Shown piece by piece: positions 14,934-38,306 of a stretch of 38,469 nt of DNA. The DNA is from a virus (taxonomy: Duplodnaviria; Caudoviricetes), in the IMG/VR virus record IMGVR_UViG_3300037045_000087, positions 1 through 38,469 of that record. One strand, given 5' to 3'. Positions within the stretch are counted from its first letter, which is position 1. Each line of letters begins with the position of its first letter. The notes beneath the pieces are model-generated. The model did no database searches and was not told the DNA's origin. It was given only the letters and a program-made list of their open reading frames with translations. The position numbers and the translations under genes are program-made.

Positions 14934-16541
14934 ATGCCCATTGCGTTCGTAGGGTCCGCCGTAGGCGTTGGCACCGGAGCCAGCTACACCGTCAACTTGA
15001 ATGGCACGTTGACGGGCGGCCTTGCGTCGTCTCCAGCCACTGGCGACATCGTCCTCGTCTTCACGGCCTTTGGGCACACGGCCAACGTCGCGCCAACAGT
15101 CTCAGGCAACAACAGTGGCGCATACACGGCGGCCACGGCGAACATCTACGGCAACGACACCTGGGACACAAACTTCCGGCCCCTCTATGCCGTCCAGGGC
15201 GCGGCTGTTGACAACCTGCTGACCATCACCCGTCAAAACACGACCACCTACGGCGGCGCAACTGTCGTCATGGTCTGGCGCGGCGTCGATGCAGACAATC
15301 CGATTGACGTGACCCCGACAACGGCTGCGCAGAACAACCCCAACTCGTGCCTGTTCAATGCCCCGGCCATAACCCCCGTGACCGAGGGTGCAGTCATCAT
15401 CGCGGCTGGAGCGGGCACCATGCCCGCCACCTCCGTGGACTTCACGGGCATCAGTGGGATGGACAACTTCCGCACGGTGAAGGGTGACGGCTCGACCTCG
15501 GACACGGCGACCGCGGCTGCGTCTATCTTCTGGTCGGGCTCTGGAAGTTATGACCCTGCCGCTGTGGCTGGAGGCACCGTCAACGCCTCCTCTTCGTGGT
15601 CTGCGGCTTCTCTTGTTCTGCGGCCCGCTCCTCTGCCTGCACATGATTTGACCGCAAGTGAGTTGACCGCGGGCAGCCCTGTCTTGGGATCTCCTGCCCT
15701 GGGTCAAACGCATGGCCTGGCTGCGACGGAGCTCCTGGCCGGGGCCCCTGCTCTTGGGGCTCCGTCCTTGGGCCAGGTTCAGGTCCTGGCTGCGACCGGG
15801 ATCTCTGCCGGGGCTCCGGTGCTTGGCTCCCCCTTGCTGGAGTCGAGTTCGGGCCACTCCCTGACCGCAACCGGAATCACTGCCGGGGCTCCGATCCTGG
15901 GATCTCCTGGCCTGGGCCAGACCCACCTTTTGAGCGCAACCGGGGTGACGGCTGGAGCCCCTGCCCTGGCTGCCCCGGCCCTCGGCCAAAGGCATGCCCT
16001 GACGGCCTCTGCGCTTGCTTCTGGGCTTCCTGTCCTGGGATCTACCGCACTGGGCCAGACACACGTTCTGGCGGCCTCTGGCGTGACCCTGGGATCTCCA
16101 GTCCTGGGGGCTCCGCCACTGTCCCAGGAGGTTGTCCACTTCCTCGATGCCGTGCCCCTGGTTACTGGCTCCCCGGTGCTTGGGGTTCCGGCCCTGGGGC
16201 AGGTTCACAACCTGGCCGCTGCTGGCCTGGTCGCTGGCGTCCCTGTGCTTGGTGCGCCGTCCCTGGGTCAAAGGCACGCGCTGACGGCCCTTGAGATCCT
16301 GGCCGGATCTCCCGACCTGGGGTTCGCCTCCCTGGGGCAGGCTCATGTTCTGCTGGCCCTTGGCTTTGCGACCGATCCTGCGGAGCTTGGGGCTCCTGCC
16401 TTGACCCTGGGCAGTCCCATTGCCGAGGAGGACATCCGGGGCTTTGTGGTGTCCAGGCCGCGGCTGGTGCTGGTCCGGGCTCCTGGCCGTGAAACCGTTT
16501 CCCTTGCCCCCAACCGAAAAAGGACTGTCACCTATGCTTGA
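14934..16541 (+). CDS. Putative head/neck fibre protein: N-terminal globular domain plus 11 tandem ~23-aa repeats
   Basis: Repeat consensus HxLxAxxLxAGxPVLGxPxLGQx across the C-terminal half. Confidence 0.7.
   Translation: MPIAFVGSAVGVGTGASYTVNLNGTLTGGLASSPATGDIVLVFTAFGHTANVAPTVSGNNSGAYTAATANIYGNDTWDTNFRPLYAVQGAAVDNLLTITRQNTTTYGGATVVMVWRGVDADNPIDVTPTTAAQNNPNSCLFNAPAITPVTEGAVIIAAGAGTMPATSVDFTGISGMDNFRTVKGDGSTSDTATAAASIFWSGSGSYDPAAVAGGTVNASSSWSAASLVLRPAPLPAHDLTASELTAGSPVLGSPALGQTHGLAATELLAGAPALGAPSLGQVQVLAATGISAGAPVLGSPLLESSSGHSLTATGITAGAPILGSPGLGQTHLLSATGVTAGAPALAAPALGQRHALTASALASGLPVLGSTALGQTHVLAASGVTLGSPVLGAPPLSQEVVHFLDAVPLVTGSPVLGVPALGQVHNLAAAGLVAGVPVLGAPSLGQRHALTALEILAGSPDLGFASLGQAHVLLALGFATDPAELGAPALTLGSPIAEEDIRGFVVSRPRLVLVRAPGRETVSLAPNRKRTVTYA
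15642..16412 (+). repeat. Coding tandem repeat, about 69-75 nt x 11, degenerate at DNA level
   Basis: Eleven His/Gln-initiated peptide repeats counted by eye. Confidence 0.85.
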
Positions 16542-16821
16542 CCCCAAAACCCCGCGCGAGTCGTACCCGATTGAGTTTGACTTTTCCCGGCTCCTGGCCT
16601 CCATCACCTCGGCCTCTGTGACCGTGACCCTTTTGGCCGGAGTGGACGCGGCTCCGGGCTCGATCCTGTCCGGGCTTGCCCAAATCTCTGGCTCCAAGGT
16701 GTTCCAGAATCTTGTCGGTGGTGTTGACGGGGCCAAGTATGGCCTCCTCTGCCAGGCCTCTGACGGGACCAGGACCTTCGAGCTTGCTGACTCCATCGAA
16801 GTCCGGGAGCCGATGCCATGA
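16534..16821 (+). CDS. Putative fibre-attachment adaptor protein
   Basis: MLDPKTPRESYPIEFDFSRLL...GGVDGAKY; AAGGA RBS; overlaps the end of the fibre gene. Confidence 0.55.
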   Translation: MLDPKTPRESYPIEFDFSRLLASITSASVTVTLLAGVDAAPGSILSGLAQISGSKVFQNLVGGVDGAKYGLLCQASDGTRTFELADSIEVREPMP

Positions 16822-17240
16822 TCAAGGTCACGACGAAAAGCGTTGGCTCCAAGGAGTTCCTGGTCGATGAGCGGTTTGTGACCCCGATAATCAAGGACCT
16901 GGCCCAGGTGGTCTATGATGAGGCCCTGGACGGTGCCGATGACCACACGAAAACCGGGGCCCTGGTCCAAAGCCTTTTCAACCGGAAGACGCCCACGGGC
17001 CGCGCTGTTGGGCACGATACGATAAGGGCCCCCCATGCTGCCTTTGTGCTGTTCGGGACCAAGCCTCACAAGATCATGCCCAAGGACAAAAAGGTTCTGC
17101 GATGGGCTGGCCCTGGTGGCTTTGTCTTTGCCAAGGTGGTCAACCATCCTGGGTATGAGGGCGATCACTACCTGAACGACGCGGCGGACAAGGCCATAAA
17201 CCAGTTCGCCGAAATCCTGAAACGACACTGGAGGCCCTGA
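16818..17240 (+). CDS. HK97 gp10-like neck / tail-completion protein
   Basis: KTGALVQSL, HAAFVLFGTKPH.I.P and VFAKVVNHPG motifs. Confidence 0.8.
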   Translation: MIKVTTKSVGSKEFLVDERFVTPIIKDLAQVVYDEALDGADDHTKTGALVQSLFNRKTPTGRAVGHDTIRAPHAAFVLFGTKPHKIMPKDKKVLRWAGPGGFVFAKVVNHPGYEGDHYLNDAADKAINQFAEILKRHWRP

Positions 17241-17241
17241 G

Positions 17242-17553
17242 ATGCCCACCAAGAATACGTTCCACGACGCCTACCTGGCGAGACACTGCACCGAGGCGAG
17301 GGAAGAACGGGCCTATGCGGAAGTCGATGCCCTGGGCACGTTTTCAGCGGCTTGGCGTGACAAGCTGGCGACCGCCCGGACCTACGTAATCGCGTGTCTG
17401 GAGAGCCAGGCCTCCCCCGATGACCTGTTTGGGGCCAAGCTGAAACACTACCGGGCCGAGTTCGATACTGCCTTGAGCCAGGCCAGGGCTGCGACCCCGG
17501 ACGATGACGGAAACCCCCTGGCCGTGTTCTCCATCCCGATCCTGAGAGGTTGA
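17242..17553 (+). CDS. Hypothetical protein, probable head-tail connector
   Basis: GGAGG RBS; 103 aa helical; position in the neck cluster. Confidence 0.55.
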   Translation: MPTKNTFHDAYLARHCTEAREERAYAEVDALGTFSAAWRDKLATARTYVIACLESQASPDDLFGAKLKHYRAEFDTALSQARAATPDDDGNPLAVFSIPILRG

Positions 17554-20200: not shown

Positions 20201-21408
20201 AGGCCTGCGACCTGCATGGTAAGTGGGTGTTCAATCGAGGTGGTCAATGCCTGGTAGGCGTGTGCCAGGGCATCGCATCCGTCTTCGTGCTCCCCTTCTG
20301 GGAAGGCCAGGAGCTCCTCTCGAAACCAGTTCGGGACCCCTGCAGGGTCGTGGCGGACCAGCCTGCGCTCGTACCTGGTGATGACCGGGGCCAGGCGCGT
20401 GACCTTGTCCCTGTCTGGCCGGATGCCGATGACCGGAAGCGTGGTGGTCCTGGCGAGTTCCTGGACGACTGCCGCCTGGAACTGCACATTTTCAATGGCG
20501 ATGATCCTGGGGCGGTGCCTGGCCGCGGCGTCCTTGATCCTGGAAAGGATCTCGTTGAACGAACAGCGGTGCCGCTCGATCTCTTTGAGGTAGAGGATGC
20601 CGGAAACCGGATCTCTGGAAAGGGCCGCGATGGCGGTGAAGTCCGCCGTCTGCTTTTCCGAGATGGCGAGATCCACGCCGAGGACTGTCTCCAGGCCCCT
20701 GGGGGCTGGCTCCATGACGATCATCTCTGGCCGGATCATGCCCGCGCCGAAGGTCACGAATTCGGCCAAATACTCCTGCCGGAAGACGAGCTCCGGGAGA
20801 TCCTCCCGGTAACGCTCGATCTCCTCTGGCCGGATATGGGGGTTGCAGGAGGTGGGCAGGTGCCAGCTTTGCCAATCCGGCTGGCCTGGGTCGTCGCCTT
20901 TGCGGTAGAGTTCGTGGAAATAGTTGATTCCGTTGGGCGTGGAAATGAACCAGGCCTCGCCCAGAAAGTCGGTCAGGGTCGGGGATATGGCCCTTTCCCA
21001 GGCCTCCTGGAGAAGTCGGGCGTGGGCGGCCTCGTCGATGACCAGCCGCTTGTACTTCCTGGACCTGCCCGCGTTCTTGTCCTCCAGGGTCCAGAAGTCG
21101 ATCTTGCCCCCCGTGATGAGGTCGATCCGCATGTCGGACTTGTTGGACCTCTTGGTGATGGGCTGGAGGGTGCGCTTCATGTCCTCCCAGACATCGAGCA
21201 GGATCTTGTAAGTCGGGGCGAAAAAGGCCACGGGCCAGCCGTCGAGGGCCGAGCCTGGCATGAGGCCGAGCCACTCCGTAGCCAGCATGGTCTTGCCGAA
21301 TCGGCGACCGCACCGGGCCACCTTGAACCTGGAGCCCCCCGAAAGGATGGCCTTTTGCCCTGAGTGAAAGTCGATGGGCGGGACTACGATCTTGCGCTTT
21401 TTGCCCAC
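20197..21408 (-). CDS. terL: Terminase large subunit
   Basis: Walker A CGRRFGKT, Walker B LVIDEAA, ISTPNG, nuclease GVDLA and HEDGCDA; GTG start overlaps the upstream stop. Confidence 0.95.
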   Translation of the reverse strand: MGKKRKIVVPPIDFHSGQKAILSGGSRFKVARCGRRFGKTMLATEWLGLMPGSALDGWPVAFFAPTYKILLDVWEDMKRTLQPITKRSNKSDMRIDLITGGKIDFWTLEDKNAGRSRKYKRLVIDEAAHARLLQEAWERAISPTLTDFLGEAWFISTPNGINYFHELYRKGDDPGQPDWQSWHLPTSCNPHIRPEEIERYREDLPELVFRQEYLAEFVTFGAGMIRPEMIVMEPAPRGLETVLGVDLAISEKQTADFTAIAALSRDPVSGILYLKEIERHRCSFNEILSRIKDAAARHRPRIIAIENVQFQAAVVQELARTTTLPVIGIRPDRDKVTRLAPVITRYERRLVRHDPAGVPNWFREELLAFPEGEHEDGCDALAHAYQALTTSIEHPLTMQVAGL

Positions 21409-22271
21409 TATGCCCTCGCCTTTTTGAGCTCCTCGCGCAGGATAAGGGGGACGGCGTTGCGCCAGGATACGCGGTGGTGAATCCGGCGGTGCTTGTGACC
21501 CATCGAGCTGATCTGGACACAGGAGGGGGCGAACATGACCGTGTAGAACGACTTCACATAGGTCCCTTTGTCCAGGTAGAGCTCCGTCATGCCGCCTTTG
21601 TTCTGCTGCGTTGACTTCTGGACCAGGCCCAGGTTCAGGACCGTGAAAAAGAGCTCCCCGCGGCCTCCCTGGGTGACATAGGTGTTCACGTCCTCGTTGA
21701 TCCTGCCCGCGAACCGGATGGGGCGGTCTGTGGCGCAGATAAAAGAGTTCATGCACTTGCGCTTGGTGAAGGCTGATGCGGCCGAGGAGGCTGACCCTCC
21801 GAGAAAGTCCCCTCCCTGGGCCATGGCTACGCTCTTGATCGGGGTGCTGCGGTGGAGGTCCACCAGGGCGTCGAAAACCCTGTCCAGGTTGTGAATGTTG
21901 CGGTCGATGTACTCGAAACGGGCGTTCTTTTTGTAGAAAAAATTCGTGTAATCATCGTCGAGTTGGATGAAGTAATCGAGGCCGAGCTCCTGGGCGATCT
22001 CGAAGCTGGCCGTCCTGGCGTAGATGATGGCGCGGCGGTCCTGGAAATTGTCCCCCTCGTCTATCTTCCTGGCGATGGCCTGCTTGTCGAAAATGTGGAC
22101 CTGGTCCCCGAAGACGCGGCGATATTCCTCCAGGGTCTTGTCCTCGTTGTCCACCACGATGACCACGCGGCCCGTGTAGCCGTGCCGCCGAAGCGAGTTG
22201 AAGGTCACCACCCTGTCGGGCCTGCCGTGGGTCAGAATGAGGGCTGCGAAGCTGCTATTCCTCATCGCCAT
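21408..22271 (-). CDS. GT-A fold glycosyltransferase, GREB1/TET-JBP-associated (TAGT)-like; candidate DNA-modifying enzyme
   Basis: ILTHGRP N-terminal strand, QLDDDY (DxD) and GRINEDV motifs. Confidence 0.75.
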   Translation of the reverse strand: MAMRNSSFAALILTHGRPDRVVTFNSLRRHGYTGRVVIVVDNEDKTLEEYRRVFGDQVHIFDKQAIARKIDEGDNFQDRRAIIYARTASFEIAQELGLDYFIQLDDDYTNFFYKKNARFEYIDRNIHNLDRVFDALVDLHRSTPIKSVAMAQGGDFLGGSASSAASAFTKRKCMNSFICATDRPIRFAGRINEDVNTYVTQGGRGELFFTVLNLGLVQKSTQQNKGGMTELYLDKGTYVKSFYTVMFAPSCVQISSMGHKHRRIHHRVSWRNAVPLILREELKKARA

Positions 22272-23034
22272 GGTCTGCCTCGTATGCTCCTGCCACTTCC
22301 TGGAAAAACTGCGCGAAGCCGTTCTCGATGGCCTTGTCGAAGTCGATGATGACCAGGGCCGACCGCTCCATGAGGTCCTGAGTCTCCTGGTCTGCGTGGG
22401 CGTAGAATTCTGCGATGTTCCGGTAATCGAAAACGACATGCCGATAGGCTGCCAGGGTCAAGAACTGCTTGACCTCGTCCGGGATGCTGGAGGCCTGGAC
22501 CTGGTCCGCGAGTTTGCGGGCCTTGGCTGCGTCGAAAAGGTCCTCGACCTTGGGCTTCTCCCCGGTGGGCTCGTAGATGGGGGCCTCGATCTTCTGCGTG
22601 TAGATGTCCTCTGCTGACCCTTCCCCTGGGTTGATGTCCGCCAGGAGGCCGTCGAGCTCCTCTTTGTCGAAACCCGTGTAGGCCAGGTCGAAGTTCATGG
22701 CCTGGAGCTCCTCCAGTTCCACGCGCAAGAGCTCCTCGTCCCACTCTGCCCAGTTCGCGGAGCGGTTTACGAGGATGCGGAAGGCTTTGATTTGGGCCTC
22801 GGTGAGATCATCGGCCAGGATGACGGGGACAGTCTCCAGGCCGAGCTTTTGGGCTGCCTTGAGCCTCAAATGCCCGTCCACGATGAGGCCGTCCGACTTG
22901 GCCATGATCGGGAGCCGGAAACCGAACTCCTTTATGGCCCCGGCCATTTTGTCCACCTGCTCGTCGTTCTTCCTGGGGTTCCGGGCGTAGGGGATCAGCT
23001 TTTCGATGCCCCATTCCTGGATTGTCAAACTCAT
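22255..23034 (-). CDS. ParB/Srx N-terminal domain fused to an uncharacterised helical C-terminal domain
   Basis: LIPYARNPRKN, IKEFGF, IVDGHLRLKAA and AEWDEELL motifs; the C-terminus lacks methyltransferase motifs. Confidence 0.85.
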   Translation of the reverse strand: MSLTIQEWGIEKLIPYARNPRKNDEQVDKMAGAIKEFGFRLPIMAKSDGLIVDGHLRLKAAQKLGLETVPVILADDLTEAQIKAFRILVNRSANWAEWDEELLRVELEELQAMNFDLAYTGFDKEELDGLLADINPGEGSAEDIYTQKIEAPIYEPTGEKPKVEDLFDAAKARKLADQVQASSIPDEVKQFLTLAAYRHVVFDYRNIAEFYAHADQETQDLMERSALVIIDFDKAIENGFAQFFQEVAGAYEADHGDEE

Positions 23035-26956: not shown

Positions 26957-27492
26957 GCCGCGTCCTCTTCAGCCTCGCCGTAATAGCCCCGGCGATCATT
27001 GTCTGGCCTGGCGTATTGTGCTCTTGCCCTGGCAACCTGGTCCCTGACACCGGGGGCGTTTTTGAAGTCTGCGCCGAGTGTTTTTCCCTTTGTGCTCCTC
27101 CATCCCTGGGCTTCCATTTGTGCGAGAGATACACGGCCTACGTACCCGGCAGATCCCTGGAGGCAATGGCAAAAGATCACGGCCGTTCTTCCGTCCCGCT
27201 CAAGGAACAAGATCCCCGCCTCACAGTCTCGACAGCCCTTCTCGTCCACGCTTGCGACCTTGCCTGGGTTCTCCATCTGCCAGGCCCTGAACTTCTCGCG
27301 GAAGGCTTTGGGCAGGTTCCTGGGCATGGTGTCGCATTCGTCCGTTAATTTTTCGACGATGAAGGGCAGGGCCTCTTCCGGGATGTTCTGAACCTTTTCG
27401 AACCAGGCGACCTTTGTGTGGGCCGGGGCTTCTCGGGAACCTAGAAACGCGGCGATCTGGTTGACGGCATGGGCGAAATTCTCTTCTCTCAT
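26950..27492 (-). CDS. Replication-associated protein, possible helicase loader, with CxxC...CxC
   Basis: Follows the initiator with an ATGA overlap; CRDC and CHC motifs. Confidence 0.55.
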   Translation of the reverse strand: MREENFAHAVNQIAAFLGSREAPAHTKVAWFEKVQNIPEEALPFIVEKLTDECDTMPRNLPKAFREKFRAWQMENPGKVASVDEKGCRDCEAGILFLERDGRTAVIFCHCLQGSAGYVGRVSLAQMEAQGWRSTKGKTLGADFKNAPGVRDQVARARAQYARPDNDRRGYYGEAEEDAAW

Positions 27493-28346
27493 TGCAGGCT
27501 CCTTGTTGCGCGTATCTTGCGCATCTCTTCGGCGTCTTTTGCGGCCCTGGCTTCCGGTGTCATGTCCTGGCGCATGACGATGACCTTGTCTTCCCACCTT
27601 CTCCCCGAGATCCAGCCTTGCGCCCATTTCGGGGTATTGCCGCTTGCAATGACGGTCTCGCGGTTTGCCGCCTCTGCGGTGGCCGCTGTGATAATCTCTT
27701 CAACGAGGGTGTCGGTCAGGATGGGAATTTCGATCCAGGCGTCAGCGGCTTCGGCTTTGCCCTTGGGATATGCGAATGCTGACCAGAAACGGTTGAAGGC
27801 CTCCAGGCGTTTGCCCTTGAGCTTGCGCTTTTTCTTGGTCAGGTAGAAAGGTTCAGACCCCTGAGAGTGAACCTCATCGCCCTTGGCGTGAGGAATATTC
27901 TCTTCTGTCTTTATTCTTTCATTCTTAACTTTCTTGTCTTTCTTGTTTGTGTCCGTTTGTTGTTCGCTTGCTGTCCGCTTGCTGTCCGCTTGCTGTCCGG
28001 CCTGCTGTCCGGCCTGCTGTTGTTCGGCCTGGTAAGTGTCCCAATTTACAATGGTAATCACGGTGAATTTGTTGTTCGGTCTGGTGTCCACAAATTCGAG
28101 CATTTTCATCTTTTCTAGCGTCCTTGCAAACTTACTTGGTGAAATTCCAAGCTCCGTTGCGGCTGCGTTTCTGCCGGAGATGAATTGCCCCGCTTGAAGG
28201 TGTACGACCTGATTGCCGACAATCTGTTTTCGTTGTTTGTGTGTTGCTTTGAACATGGCCCATAAAAAAAACTGGCAGGCCCCTGGATCTTGTAAGATCC
28301 CGGAGTCTTCCAGTTTTCTCCAAACCTTGACATAGCCCCGGTGCAT
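27489..28346 (-). CDS. Phage replication initiator (replisome organiser)
   Basis: GYVKVWRK, GQFISGR, TVITIVNWDTYQ, FNRFWSAF and W.SGRRWED motifs; internal iterons. Confidence 0.88.
   Translation of the reverse strand: MHRGYVKVWRKLEDSGILQDPGACQFFLWAMFKATHKQRKQIVGNQVVHLQAGQFISGRNAAATELGISPSKFARTLEKMKMLEFVDTRPNNKFTVITIVNWDTYQAEQQQAGQQAGQQADSKRTASEQQTDTNKKDKKVKNERIKTEENIPHAKGDEVHSQGSEPFYLTKKKRKLKGKRLEAFNRFWSAFAYPKGKAEAADAWIEIPILTDTLVEEIITAATAEAANRETVIASGNTPKWAQGWISGRRWEDKVIVMRQDMTPEARAAKDAEEMRKIRATRSLQ
27895..28020. repeat. Putative replication origin: iterons next to an AT-rich tract inside the initiator gene
   Basis: GCTTGCTGTCC x3 perfect (27966-27998), two GGCCTGCTGT(CC) variants to 28020, T-rich tract at about 27895-27950. 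Confidence 0.75.
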
Positions 28347-35517: not shown

Positions 35518-36479
35518 GCGACGAAACTGCACTCGCAACAATAGGGCCTGAAACGGCCCTTTCTTTTTTCTCTGAGGGCCAGGGCGTGGAGCTCCTGGTC
35601 GAGGCTGTCCGAAACAGGGCCCTGGAGCTCATGCCCGCGGATCTGGATCTGACCACGGCCAAGGGCCGCGCCGAACTGGTGTCTGTGGCCTACAAGGTAG
35701 CCCGGACCAAGTCCGCCATTGACGATGTGGGGAAGGCCCTTGTCGCCGAGTACAAGGCGATCCCTGCCCGGATTGACGCCACCCGGAAGAGGCTGCGGGA
35801 CGAGCTCGATAACCTCAAGGCCGAGATTCGGAAGCCCGTGACCGAGTGGGAGGAAAAGGAGGCTGGAAGGGTTCAGGCCATAAAGGACCGGATCGACGGA
35901 ATACGCGCCCATTCCGGGGCCAGGGCCGAGTCCTCCGAGGAAATCATGGATCTGTTGAAGGGCGTCCAGGCCCTCCAGATTGACGACTCTTTCGAGGAGC
36001 TCCAGGGCGAGGCTGCCCTTGCCAAGGATGCTGTCCTGTCCCGGCTGTTTGAACGCCACGCGGCTGCCGTAGGTCGGGAGGCTGAAGAGAAGGAACGCGT
36101 CGAGAAGATGCGCGTCGAGCAGGAGGCCAGGGCCAAGATCGAGGCCGAAAAAAAGGCCGCCCTGGAGATCTCCGAGGCCGAGAAGCGAGAAGCCCAGGCC
36201 CTGCTTGCCAAGGAGAAGGCCGAGCGGGAGGCCGCCCAGGCGAAGGCCGATTCCGAAAAGAAGGCCCTGGAGGCTGTTGAGGCCGAAAAGCGCAGGGTTG
36301 CCCTGGAGGAGGCCAAGAAAAAGGCCGAGGAGGAGGCCCGGACCAAGGATGCGGAGCGACGCTTCCAGGTCCATTCCGAGATCCTGGAGGATCTGAAGGC
36401 CGTTGAAAGTGTGACCCCGTTCCTGATCCTGGAGGCGATCCGCGATGGTCGCGTCCGTCACCTGAAAATTGAATATTAG
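35514..36479 (+). CDS. Phage coiled-coil protein (A/E/K-rich)
   Basis: DLTTAKGR..L.SVAYKVARTK, IRKPVTEWE and terminal HLKIEY. Confidence 0.75.
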   Translation: MSDETALATIGPETALSFFSEGQGVELLVEAVRNRALELMPADLDLTTAKGRAELVSVAYKVARTKSAIDDVGKALVAEYKAIPARIDATRKRLRDELDNLKAEIRKPVTEWEEKEAGRVQAIKDRIDGIRAHSGARAESSEEIMDLLKGVQALQIDDSFEELQGEAALAKDAVLSRLFERHAAAVGREAEEKERVEKMRVEQEARAKIEAEKKAALEISEAEKREAQALLAKEKAEREAAQAKADSEKKALEAVEAEKRRVALEEAKKKAEEEARTKDAERRFQVHSEILEDLKAVESVTPFLILEAIRDGRVRHLKIEY

Positions 36480-36490
36480 CGAGGCAAACC

Positions 36491-37075
36491 ATGGAGCGAA
36501 TGGCCCTGAAATTTATCGGAACTGGACCGATCCTCATGCACAGTGATCGACTTGTGAACAGGTTCGACCCTCTGGCGAAAAAGTTCTCCGCGATCAGTGG
36601 GAAGAGAAAAAAGACAGATGACGACCATGAACAACTGGCCCGGATTGAGTGGGAGGGTGGGCTCTATCTCGACGATACTGTTGGCCCCTTTCTGCCTGGG
36701 AGGATGATCAAGTCCGCCCTGGTCGGGGCTGCGAAAAAGACGAAGGACGGCCCCAAAGTCAAGTCCGGTGTGCTGATTATGACCGACAAGGCCCCGCTTG
36801 AATATGACGGCCCCAGGACCATCGAAAAGCTCTGGAAGGATGGCCGCTTTGCTGATGCCCGGAGCGTTGTTGTTCAGCGGTCCAGGATTATGAGGTGCCG
36901 CCCGATCTTCAACGGCTGGTCTGCTGCGTTCGAGGTTGTGTTTGACCCTGCCGTAATTGACCGCGCCGACATTGTGAGGATCTCGGAAACCTGCGGGGCT
37001 CTGGTGGGAATAGGGGACTATCGCCCCGAAAATGGCGGCGACTTTGGCCGCTTCTCTGTGGAGGTTCTCAAATGA
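36491..37075 (+). CDS. Stand-alone minimal RAMP/Cas7-like protein; candidate effector of the adjacent GGY-NN array
   Basis: FIGTGPILMH first strand, PFLPGRMIKSAL (compare Cas7-group PxIPGSSxKG), RCRPIF..W...FEV and the C-terminal Gly loop GIGDYRPENGGDFGRFSV. Confidence 0.7.
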   Translation: MERMALKFIGTGPILMHSDRLVNRFDPLAKKFSAISGKRKKTDDDHEQLARIEWEGGLYLDDTVGPFLPGRMIKSALVGAAKKTKDGPKVKSGVLIMTDKAPLEYDGPRTIEKLWKDGRFADARSVVVQRSRIMRCRPIFNGWSAAFEVVFDPAVIDRADIVRISETCGALVGIGDYRPENGGDFGRFSVEVLK

Positions 37076-37524
37076 GCGATGCCCCGATCAGGTTGAACGA
37101 CCCCGTACTGTTCTCCCTGGAGCGATTCGCGGAAGAGGGCTTCACCTTTGGCGACGTTATTCCGAGGGCCTGGTTTGACGAGTGCTTTGGGATTGAGCCG
37201 CCCAGGACCGTGGCCGAGGCCTACGATGCCCAGGTCCTCTACATGAACCTGATGGGGGCCTTCCGCAAGCGGCTCCTGAACGACAGAAAAATGGCCCTGC
37301 GGTCAAAGCCTGGAGTGGGCCAGGAGATTGTCCGCCCCTCGGAACAAACGGCGTGGGCCGTAAATGAGTTTCGGGGGGCCTTGACCCTGGCCGTTGAGAA
37401 GGCCCGCGACCGACTGAAAAATATCGAACTCAGGACCCTGACAGATGAGGAGAAGCGGGCCAACGCGGACGCGATAGCCAAGCTGTCCTTTTTTGCCCGG
37501 AAGTCCTCCAGGGCGTTGCCGTAA
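37072..37524 (+). CDS. Hypothetical protein translationally coupled to the RAMP-like gene
   Basis: ATGA overlap; 150 aa; its stop codon abuts the array. Confidence 0.75.
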   Translation: MSDAPIRLNDPVLFSLERFAEEGFTFGDVIPRAWFDECFGIEPPRTVAEAYDAQVLYMNLMGAFRKRLLNDRKMALRSKPGVGQEIVRPSEQTAWAVNEFRGALTLAVEKARDRLKNIELRTLTDEEKRANADAIAKLSFFARKSSRALP

Positions 37525-37525
37525 G

Positions 37526-37837
37526 TTTCCCGCGGCTTGGTGATGTATGGCCTGGCGCGGCTAGGCGATGCGCGGCCTGGCGTGGCGAGGTTGATCCTGG
37601 GCATGATCTGAAAAGGCCCGAATTTTCTCATGGCGTTGCGTGGCAGGGTCCGGTTGGGCTCGGCAGGGCGCGGCAAGGACTATTTTTCCCTAGGCCTGGC
37701 AAGGCACGGCCTGGCGTGGTGGGGCGAGGCAAGGCAAGGGTCCTGGGCATGACGGTAAAAGGCCCGACTTTTCCCAAGGCCAGGACGGGCGCGGCTTGGC
37801 AAGGCGCGGCTTGGCGAGGCTTGGCAAGGCGAGGTTT
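37526..37837 (+). ncRNA. Array of four GGY-NN pentamer tracts; candidate guide-RNA array
   Basis: Tracts at 37534-37593, 37632-37676, 37693-37737 and 37778-37837, each preceded by TTTCYC-NN. Linker TCCTGGGCATGA-N4-AAAAGGCCCGA at 37595-37621 and 37741-37767. Confidence 0.8.
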
Positions 37838-37865
37838 TCTTTCACAACAAAAAATCGAGGTAAAT

Positions 37866-38306
37866 ATGGCTGGAAGTCTGAACAAGGTAATCCTGATCGG
37901 CCGCCTGGGGCGCGATCCTGAAGTCCGTTACACGCCCCAGGGCCAGCCTGTGGCTTCCTTCTCCCTGGCTACGGATGAGTCGTACAAGGGAAAGGATGGC
38001 CAGAAGGTTGAAAAAACGGAATGGCACAAGGTCGTGGTCTGGGGAAAGCAGGCCGAGTTCTGCGGAAAATACCTCTCCAAGGGCCGCCTGGCCTATGTTG
38101 AGGGCAAGCTCGAAACCCGGAAATGGACCGACAAGGACGGGGTGGAGAAGTACACCACCGAGATCAAGGCCGACAGGGTCATGGGGATGGACTCCAGGCC
38201 CGAAGGACAGGCCCAGGGGCAGGCTGCGGCGGCTGGTGGATACGATAAAAACTATGGCCCCGCCTTCCCTTCTGAACCGTCCGGGATGGACGATGCACCT
38301 TTTTAG
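37866..38306 (+). CDS. ssb: Single-stranded DNA-binding protein
   Basis: LNKVILIGRLGRDPEVRY, TEWH and VEGKLETRKW motifs; DDAPF tail; GAGG RBS. Confidence 0.97.
   Translation: MAGSLNKVILIGRLGRDPEVRYTPQGQPVASFSLATDESYKGKDGQKVEKTEWHKVVVWGKQAEFCGKYLSKGRLAYVEGKLETRKWTDKDGVEKYTTEIKADRVMGMDSRPEGQAQGQAAAAGGYDKNYGPAFPSEPSGMDDAPF

Follow-up and report, generated by a model that had tools for sequence, protein, structure and literature searches.

The systems closest to the locus analysed here are the VIPR systems, a class of programmable DNA-binding systems described only months ago. According to three 2026 preprints (10.64898/2026.04.26.720920, 10.64898/2026.04.26.720927 and 10.64898/2026.10.15.759431), one Vipr protomer binds each pentamer of a repetitive guide RNA, the protein holding GGY while NN pairs with DNA. 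Pairing skips one base and needs no PAM, and the outcome is transcriptional repression. Natural targets are given there as mostly satellites and prophages, and Vap1 is needed in infection. Published guide tracts contain 9-16 units. In the SUSP1 system, repression requires D177, R138, K82 and K33, with R39 required in part, and the K33A change abolished it (10.64898/2026.04.26.720927). A further preprint recovered 99 VIPR-like array clusters (10.64898/2026.10.21.760802), and such arrays are therefore common. One more member of this class is a useful addition and not a discovery; the present locus adds a likely sulfate-reducer phage host and a Vipr without the K33 contact, and the new item is the tail motif on two of its tracts.

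The window, meaning the whole stretch of 38,469 nucleotides analysed, is a linear record from groundwater metagenomes that CheckV rates as 51% complete. Terminase, major head, tape measure, TipJ, CI-like repressor, RecT and exonuclease VIII genes mark it as a tailed phage, presumably temperate because of the CI-like repressor gene. The 194-aa gene and coupled 150-aa gene pointed out in an earlier note on this DNA were both recovered as ORFs: vipr (36491-37075; phrog_4652) and a vap1-like accessory gene (37072-37524; phrog_5926), which overlap by 4 nt and, like all features of the locus, lie on the plus strand. They are flanked by a 321-aa gene and by ssb (37866-38306; Pfam SSB, E 6e-39). We put the probability at about 0.9 that this is a phage VIPR locus of a type II-like kind, composed of vipr, a vap1 homologue and four GGY-NN tracts, the tracts likely being guide RNAs of a DNA-binding, repressing Vipr filament. 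A promoter scan returned 1 site, compared with 0.4 in shuffles, and hence no clear promoter. The locus does not look like an assembly artefact: a sequencing run from a second study (X2) matches almost all of it, three contigs covering 36439-37627 and 37642-38214 with one differing letter.

The phage SSB was 78-84% identical to the SSB of about 15 genomes in one 35-genome family of the Desulfovibrionales, compared with 63% for a Desulfovibrio MAG of the same order and 54% for a Rhodocyclaceae MAG. Because identity was highest to that family, the host is likely a member of the Desulfovibrionales, the one order searched, as judged from sequence comparison. None of the 35 genomes in this family yielded a Vipr.

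Analysis of the 194-aa protein placed it in the Vipr family. A phmmer search of the PDB returned one significant match, SUSP1 Vipr (36pp, E 4.3e-32), and identity to the copy in the SUSP1 genome was 35%; 363 relatives were found. An AlphaFold2 model built with an alignment of 120 relatives (mean pLDDT 95.3) has the RAMP/RRM fold with a thumb and a G-loop. Foldseek matched the model to Csm complexes at E 1e-6, with Csm3/Cmr4/Cas7-type RAMPs among its matches, and VIA aligned it with a Csm chain (Z 11.2, rmsd 3.0, 135 aligned) and with Csm3 (Z 10.1, rmsd 3.4, 142 aligned). The RAMP/Cas7-like character proposed in the earlier note was thus right, the VIPR system to which it referred is real (10.64898/2026.04.26.720920 and 10.64898/2026.04.26.720927), and its view of the locus as a new member rather than a new class stands, VIPR being already in print. 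Pfam and NCBIfam contain no model for vipr or vap. Of the SUSP1 Vipr residues singled out in 10.64898/2026.04.26.720927, those kept in the window protein are H17, R39, M72, K82, G87, R138 (R137 here), D177 (D176) and R179 (R178), while W178 is replaced by Y177, K33 by S33, K88 by P, E71 by R and C173 by V172. The residues on which SUSP1 repression depends are accordingly kept at D176, R137, K82 and R39, and the counterpart of K33 is S. Among 120 homologues position 33 is K in 68, A in 32 and S in 13.

One reading, which we regard as extremely improbable, is that the gene is a stray cas7 or csm3, or an RNA-based anti-CRISPR, beside an unrelated low-complexity repeat. The predicted structure does resemble Csm3, Cmr4 and Cas7, and Class 1 RAMPs share with Vipr the RRM core, thumb and G-loop and a filament formed on guide RNA. 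However, the protein shares only about 5-19% identity with those RAMPs, compared with 35% for SUSP1 Vipr, none of the Cas models matched it, and the tracts described below travel with the gene on the same strand. Class 1 RAMPs are also encoded in multi-gene loci with CRISPR arrays, none of which are present in the window, and Class 1 CRISPR systems read a contiguous spacer with every sixth base flipped. The earlier report of no cas1, cas2, cas3, cas5 or cas6 gene and no CRISPR array was upheld within this linear, 51% complete record: Cas1 was not found, Cas models had zero matches among 60 submitted ORFs of 153 listed, and no CRISPR-like repeat family occurred in the 38.5 kb.

The 150-aa accessory protein was 25% identical over 112 aa (pairwise E 2e-12) to the product of the gene that follows vipr in SUSP1, which we infer from the locus description in the papers to be vap1. 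A profile of the accessory family matched 195 of 211 Vipr loci, a partly circular count in that the profile was built from 79 of these proteins; SUSP1, which lies outside the 79, was matched at E 7e-31. The model of the protein (pLDDT 92.8) has a predicted winged-helix-like N-terminal part and long helices. Foldseek found no solved structure at E ≤ 0.001, and its weak top matches were mostly winged-helix DNA-binding domains. Homology to vap1 and these winged-helix-like matches, which agree with the WH-like label used in the paper, point to a type II-like locus, with the node that joins SUSP1 in the Vipr tree supported at only 0.36. This tree of 171 proteins, which holds no reference members of other VIPR types, placed the window Vipr in an 8-member clade (support 0.91), and the node at 0.36 is the next one, containing SUSP1 and LESphi2.

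Two described groups of loci can be compared with the window directly. The type II VIPR of SUSP1 (PDB 36pp) likewise has coupled vipr and vap1 genes and four GGY-NN tracts, without cas genes or a CRISPR array, and its tails can form an H-type pseudoknot in which, by reading, a stem, a complementary loop and an A-rich linker are arranged as in the window tail. In contrast, one SUSP1 tract lies upstream and three downstream, whereas all four in the window are downstream; the tail sequences are unrelated, the window tail is on two tracts only, K33 is S33, and the window phage has a CI-like repressor and is likely a phage of the Desulfovibrionales. The VIPR loci of Pseudomonas prophages (LESphi2 and L005-L010), which we take to be near the P. 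fulva clade, also sit in the early region of a temperate phage and are 51% identical in Vipr and 34% in Vap, but their tracts precede vipr and are closed by long hairpin tails starting GGGCTG, where the window has downstream tracts and a pseudoknot.

The four tracts of the window contain 12, 9, 9 and 12 pentamers, within the published size range; they occupy three different phases, and the linkers between them measure 38, 16 and 40 nt. T1 (37534-37593) has 10 GGY and two TGY units, and its final base doubles as the first base of the tail stem. T2 (37632-37676; 8 GGY of 9 units) is followed by the 16-nt linker, which is U-rich and without a pseudoknot. T3 (37693-37737) is GGY in all nine units, and T4 (37778-37837; 11 GGY of 12) is U-rich and then A-rich at its end, where it runs into the ribosome-binding region of ssb. 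The periodicity that had drawn attention to the region was confirmed, the best run of 12 units holding 11 GGY; in 200 order-2 Markov simulations of the full sequence, scored on both strands, the count never exceeded 7. The strict, constant-GGY array of about 310 nt that had been described was not: pentamers make up 210 of 304 nt, interrupted by linkers, and 38 of the 42 units start with GGY, three with TGY and one with GGA. The array is better described as four guide tracts, some of them tailed, and the published code adds to the earlier note a one-base skip per NN pair and repression of dsDNA. All 16 dinucleotides are present at the NN positions, with skewed use (GA, AA, TT and GC together fill 22 of 42). 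This skew, and the absence of a structured tail from T2 and T4, would also fit a state in which some of the tracts are not guides but are drifting. Single-strand folding of the linkers, by a method that cannot model pseudoknots, was no better than for shuffles.

Of 210 Vipr loci, 167 had a tract of at least six GGY on the same strand as vipr and one had such a tract on the opposite strand, compared with none of 135 unrelated viral loci; the Vipr loci came from viral, metagenome and genome collections with duplicates kept, and the control loci were shorter. With a RAMP fold found and tracts next to vipr in this many homologues, the first two of the tests by which the earlier note proposed to refute its reading fail to do so. 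By the same rule 43 of the 210 loci had no tract (20 of 117 among loci of at least 5 kb). A vap homologue was present in 12 of 14 such loci (L046, L049, L051, L052, L055-L060, L072, L073, L075 and L078), and these 14 may use non-canonical pentamers. Denser arrays than that of the window occur in two Vipr loci with 9-10 short tracts and linkers of 8-22 nt (L013:3598-4300 and L016:1669-2960), and tracts of 21-27 pentamers with internal repeated blocks, above the published range, occur in L002:4026-4130, L047:4149-4273 and L053. A Desulfovibrio MAG contains a further VIPR locus, of 54% identity, whose two short-linker tracts sit immediately upstream of vipr (L348:3883-4000 and L003).

The mechanism proposed for the window follows the published one. 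Transcription of the tracts likely occurs as part of the early operon, and their RNAs would serve as guides. By homology with SUSP1 and P. fulva, one Vipr protomer would bind each pentamer and hold GGY; each NN would pair with the target, one target base being skipped between pairs, with no PAM. That a protomer grips GGY and displays NN, as the earlier note supposed, is borne out for published VIPR, and at this locus would hold by homology. The filament would likely bind the dsDNA of rival mobile elements and repress their genes without cutting, and Vap1 would strengthen the effect, again as in the described systems. Four guides would result, each reading 18-24 bases. The repeat part may be shielded by the Vipr filament and the U-rich linkers trimmed or cut, and guides 1 and 3 would have the predicted pseudoknot as a 3' cap, a part played in SUSP1 by a different pseudoknot. 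In VIPR arrays of types I and V, hammerhead ribozymes are interspersed between guides. The window linkers are 16-40 nt long and a hammerhead between its guides was rejected, with no Rfam ribozyme match in 36300-38000 at E ≤ 10; the linkers also appear to be without hammerhead core words. A hammerhead identity for the tail described below was likewise rejected.

Targets were sought under the rule that each NN pairs and one target base is skipped between pairs. Best self-matches within the window were 15/24, 13/18, 13/18 and 16/24 for T1 to T4, and skips of 0-3 gave nothing above 16/24 or 15/20 there; published VIPR systems are likewise without self-targets. Against viral contigs, units 4-11 of T1 as an exact sub-pattern had 16 matches (best 19/24) and units 1-8 had 8 (best 20/24), and T3 had no target match. 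Units 3-10 of T4 had 119 matches (55 of 64 parts of the viral contigs), the best being 22/24 in an AT-rich 266-kb contig (L279), which we estimate to be about chance for 119 trials. T2 had one exact 18/18 match in a contig of 35% GC (L409), where the skipped base falls, by reading, at third codon positions; this is at chance level, about 0.5-1 such matches being expected from 16-base counts. Exact search of GTDB with units 2-12 of T1 gave no match. No tract therefore has a target above chance in the collections searched, an absence that says little because exact sub-patterns miss internally mismatched targets and the host family was represented by only 35 species.

This outcome bears on two alternatives to a working VIPR locus directed at rival elements. 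It is unlikely that the locus is partly decayed or follows an altered reading rule, so that RNAs are bound while silencing is weak or absent, or so that only T1 and T3 are guides. The replacement of K33 by S33, the lack of a tail on T2 and T4, the many repeated TT, AA and GA units of T4 and the missing target would all fit decay. Both ORFs are intact, however, K30 is retained, K31 is a single turn away from position 33, and A or S at that position looks tolerated because 45 of 120 homologues have one of them. Short U-rich linkers without a large tail are also found in other Vipr loci (L002, L016 and L348), and the target databases are poor in elements of this host group.

It also seems quite improbable that the guides are aimed at host genes, or at the missing half of the phage itself, for take-over of the host or self-regulation. 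The record is only about half complete, and T2 had 12 matches at no more than 2 mismatches (16-17 of 18 bases) in the 35 family genomes compared with 1 for its reversed control, a control unmatched for codon pattern. These 12 matches were scattered over unrelated genes, none of them in a locus shared by the family, and the matches in the family genomes lie in what, judged by eye from the translations, are housekeeping-type genes. The other tracts gave no excess (4 matches against 8 in the control for T3, 1 against 1 for T1 and 0 against 0 for T4), and published natural targets are mostly prophages and satellites.

T1 and T3 each end in the same 28-nt element, which is absent from T2 and T4. 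Tail 1 (37593-37620) is predicted to form an H-type pseudoknot with an A-rich loop, stem 1 pairing 37593-37596 with 37605-37608 and stem 2 pairing 37598-37602 with 37616-37620; tail 2 (37739-37766) is a second copy in which stem 1 has three pairs. An 18-base pattern taken from the tail was run against viral contigs and found 45 sites in 44 contigs, mostly with the spacing seen in the window. None of these stand-alone sites had a tract of at least four GGY within 400 nt, and four of the 45, without the upstream stem letters, are probably chance matches. Among 42 distinct copies, which include the chance-like ones and the two of the window, one position that the search pattern did not cover is paired in 39, where 17.7 would be expected and 0 of 5000 shuffles did as well; all four Watson-Crick types occur there. 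The position after it is paired in 29 (16.5 expected). In an alignment of 31 chosen copies (two from the window, two from other Vipr loci and 27 of the 45 stand-alone sites) 94% of cells pair. Stem 1 is supported by two-sided changes in this alignment, while stem 2, largely fixed by the search pattern, shows only one-sided changes and its end pair fails in 5 of the 31, so that stem 1 is supported and the full pseudoknot is a prediction.

The same tail was present on only 2 of 467 tracts in 210 other Vipr loci. One of these loci is close to the window in the Vipr tree (L158, distance 0.71) and the other far (L026, 1.46), while loci closer than the latter have other tails (L002, L347 and L001), which suggests that tails are exchanged between VIPR loci. 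In 39 of the 44 records with stand-alone tails, 8 of the 39 being at least 90% complete, there was no match to a Vipr profile that did match its positive control. At 21 of 37 distinct stand-alone sites the tail lies no more than 35 nt after the stop codon of a same-strand ORF, compared with 7 of 37 in the opposite orientation and 235 of 3000 random positions. Nine of 29 ORFs upstream of such tails have a PHROG, and the five that are named are annealing protein (two), Hsp20 (two) and major head (one).

The tail is rare in Vipr loci, yet about 40 sites in viral contigs have it without a neighbouring tract, often just behind a stop codon. These data suggest that the guide tails are borrowed RNA end-caps, and we read the element as a 3'-end cap against exonucleases. 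We advance tentatively, at somewhat less than even odds, the wider idea that VIPR tails are interchangeable end-caps drawn from a phage pool, and that this pseudoknot is an undescribed, widespread phage RNA protecting the 3' ends of transcripts behind capsid, annealing-protein, Hsp20 and similar genes, captured more than once by unrelated loci. Alternatively, the tail may be bound by a protein or direct processing. It may also act in translation from a 5' position, since 24 of the 37 sites have a downstream start with a ribosome-binding-like word. If the tail is a true end-cap, engineered guides could be stabilised with it as a minimal tail, and it would also represent a new family of phage RNA; should it prove to cap phage 3' ends in general, it would account for the diversity of VIPR tails between clades and be the shortest candidate tail for reprogrammed guides. 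With two capped and two uncapped tracts in one compact array, the purpose of the tail could be asked in a single experiment.

The tail is provisionally regarded as undescribed. Rfam searches of the window and of 20 stand-alone loci out of the 44 gave no match to it, the motif was absent from 401 genomes of the order Desulfovibrionales, and its core words were found in no paper, the passages and supplements of PMC2864571 that were searched having the word only inside other motifs, and six supplementary files of PMC10690425 being without the core words. The STAXI RNA (RF01728) is comparable in being a small pseudoknot that belongs to mobile elements and often lies close to ssb, and is described as tandem, with UUCG loops, in Enterobacteriales (PMC2864571). 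Identity of the tail with STAXI was rejected on the lack of an Rfam match and the absence of the tail core word from the STAXI supplement rows inspected.

The stand-alone tails (L168-L211, motif at about 401-423 in each) form a candidate new phage RNA family. One of them is in a small contig with a microvirus-type major head gene (L177), two have tRNAs nearby (L180 and L193) and one contig has two copies (L179). A weak twister-P1 ribozyme match was seen at L180:624-690 on the minus strand (E 0.042), below the family threshold.

Three further regions of the window were noted. On the minus strand at 21408-23034, a ParB-like gene is followed by a glucosyltransferase-like gene (phrog_842), adjoining the terminase genes, as a possible DNA modification pair; the single methyltransferase-model match in the ORF searches was on a ParB-like gene. 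Repeats of 69-nt period occupy 15680-16410 inside a 716-aa ORF on the minus strand (15102-17252) that had no PHROG or NCBIfam match. Tandem repeats of 11 nt at 27950-28031, within a replication initiator-like gene (27489-28346), are probably origin iterons.
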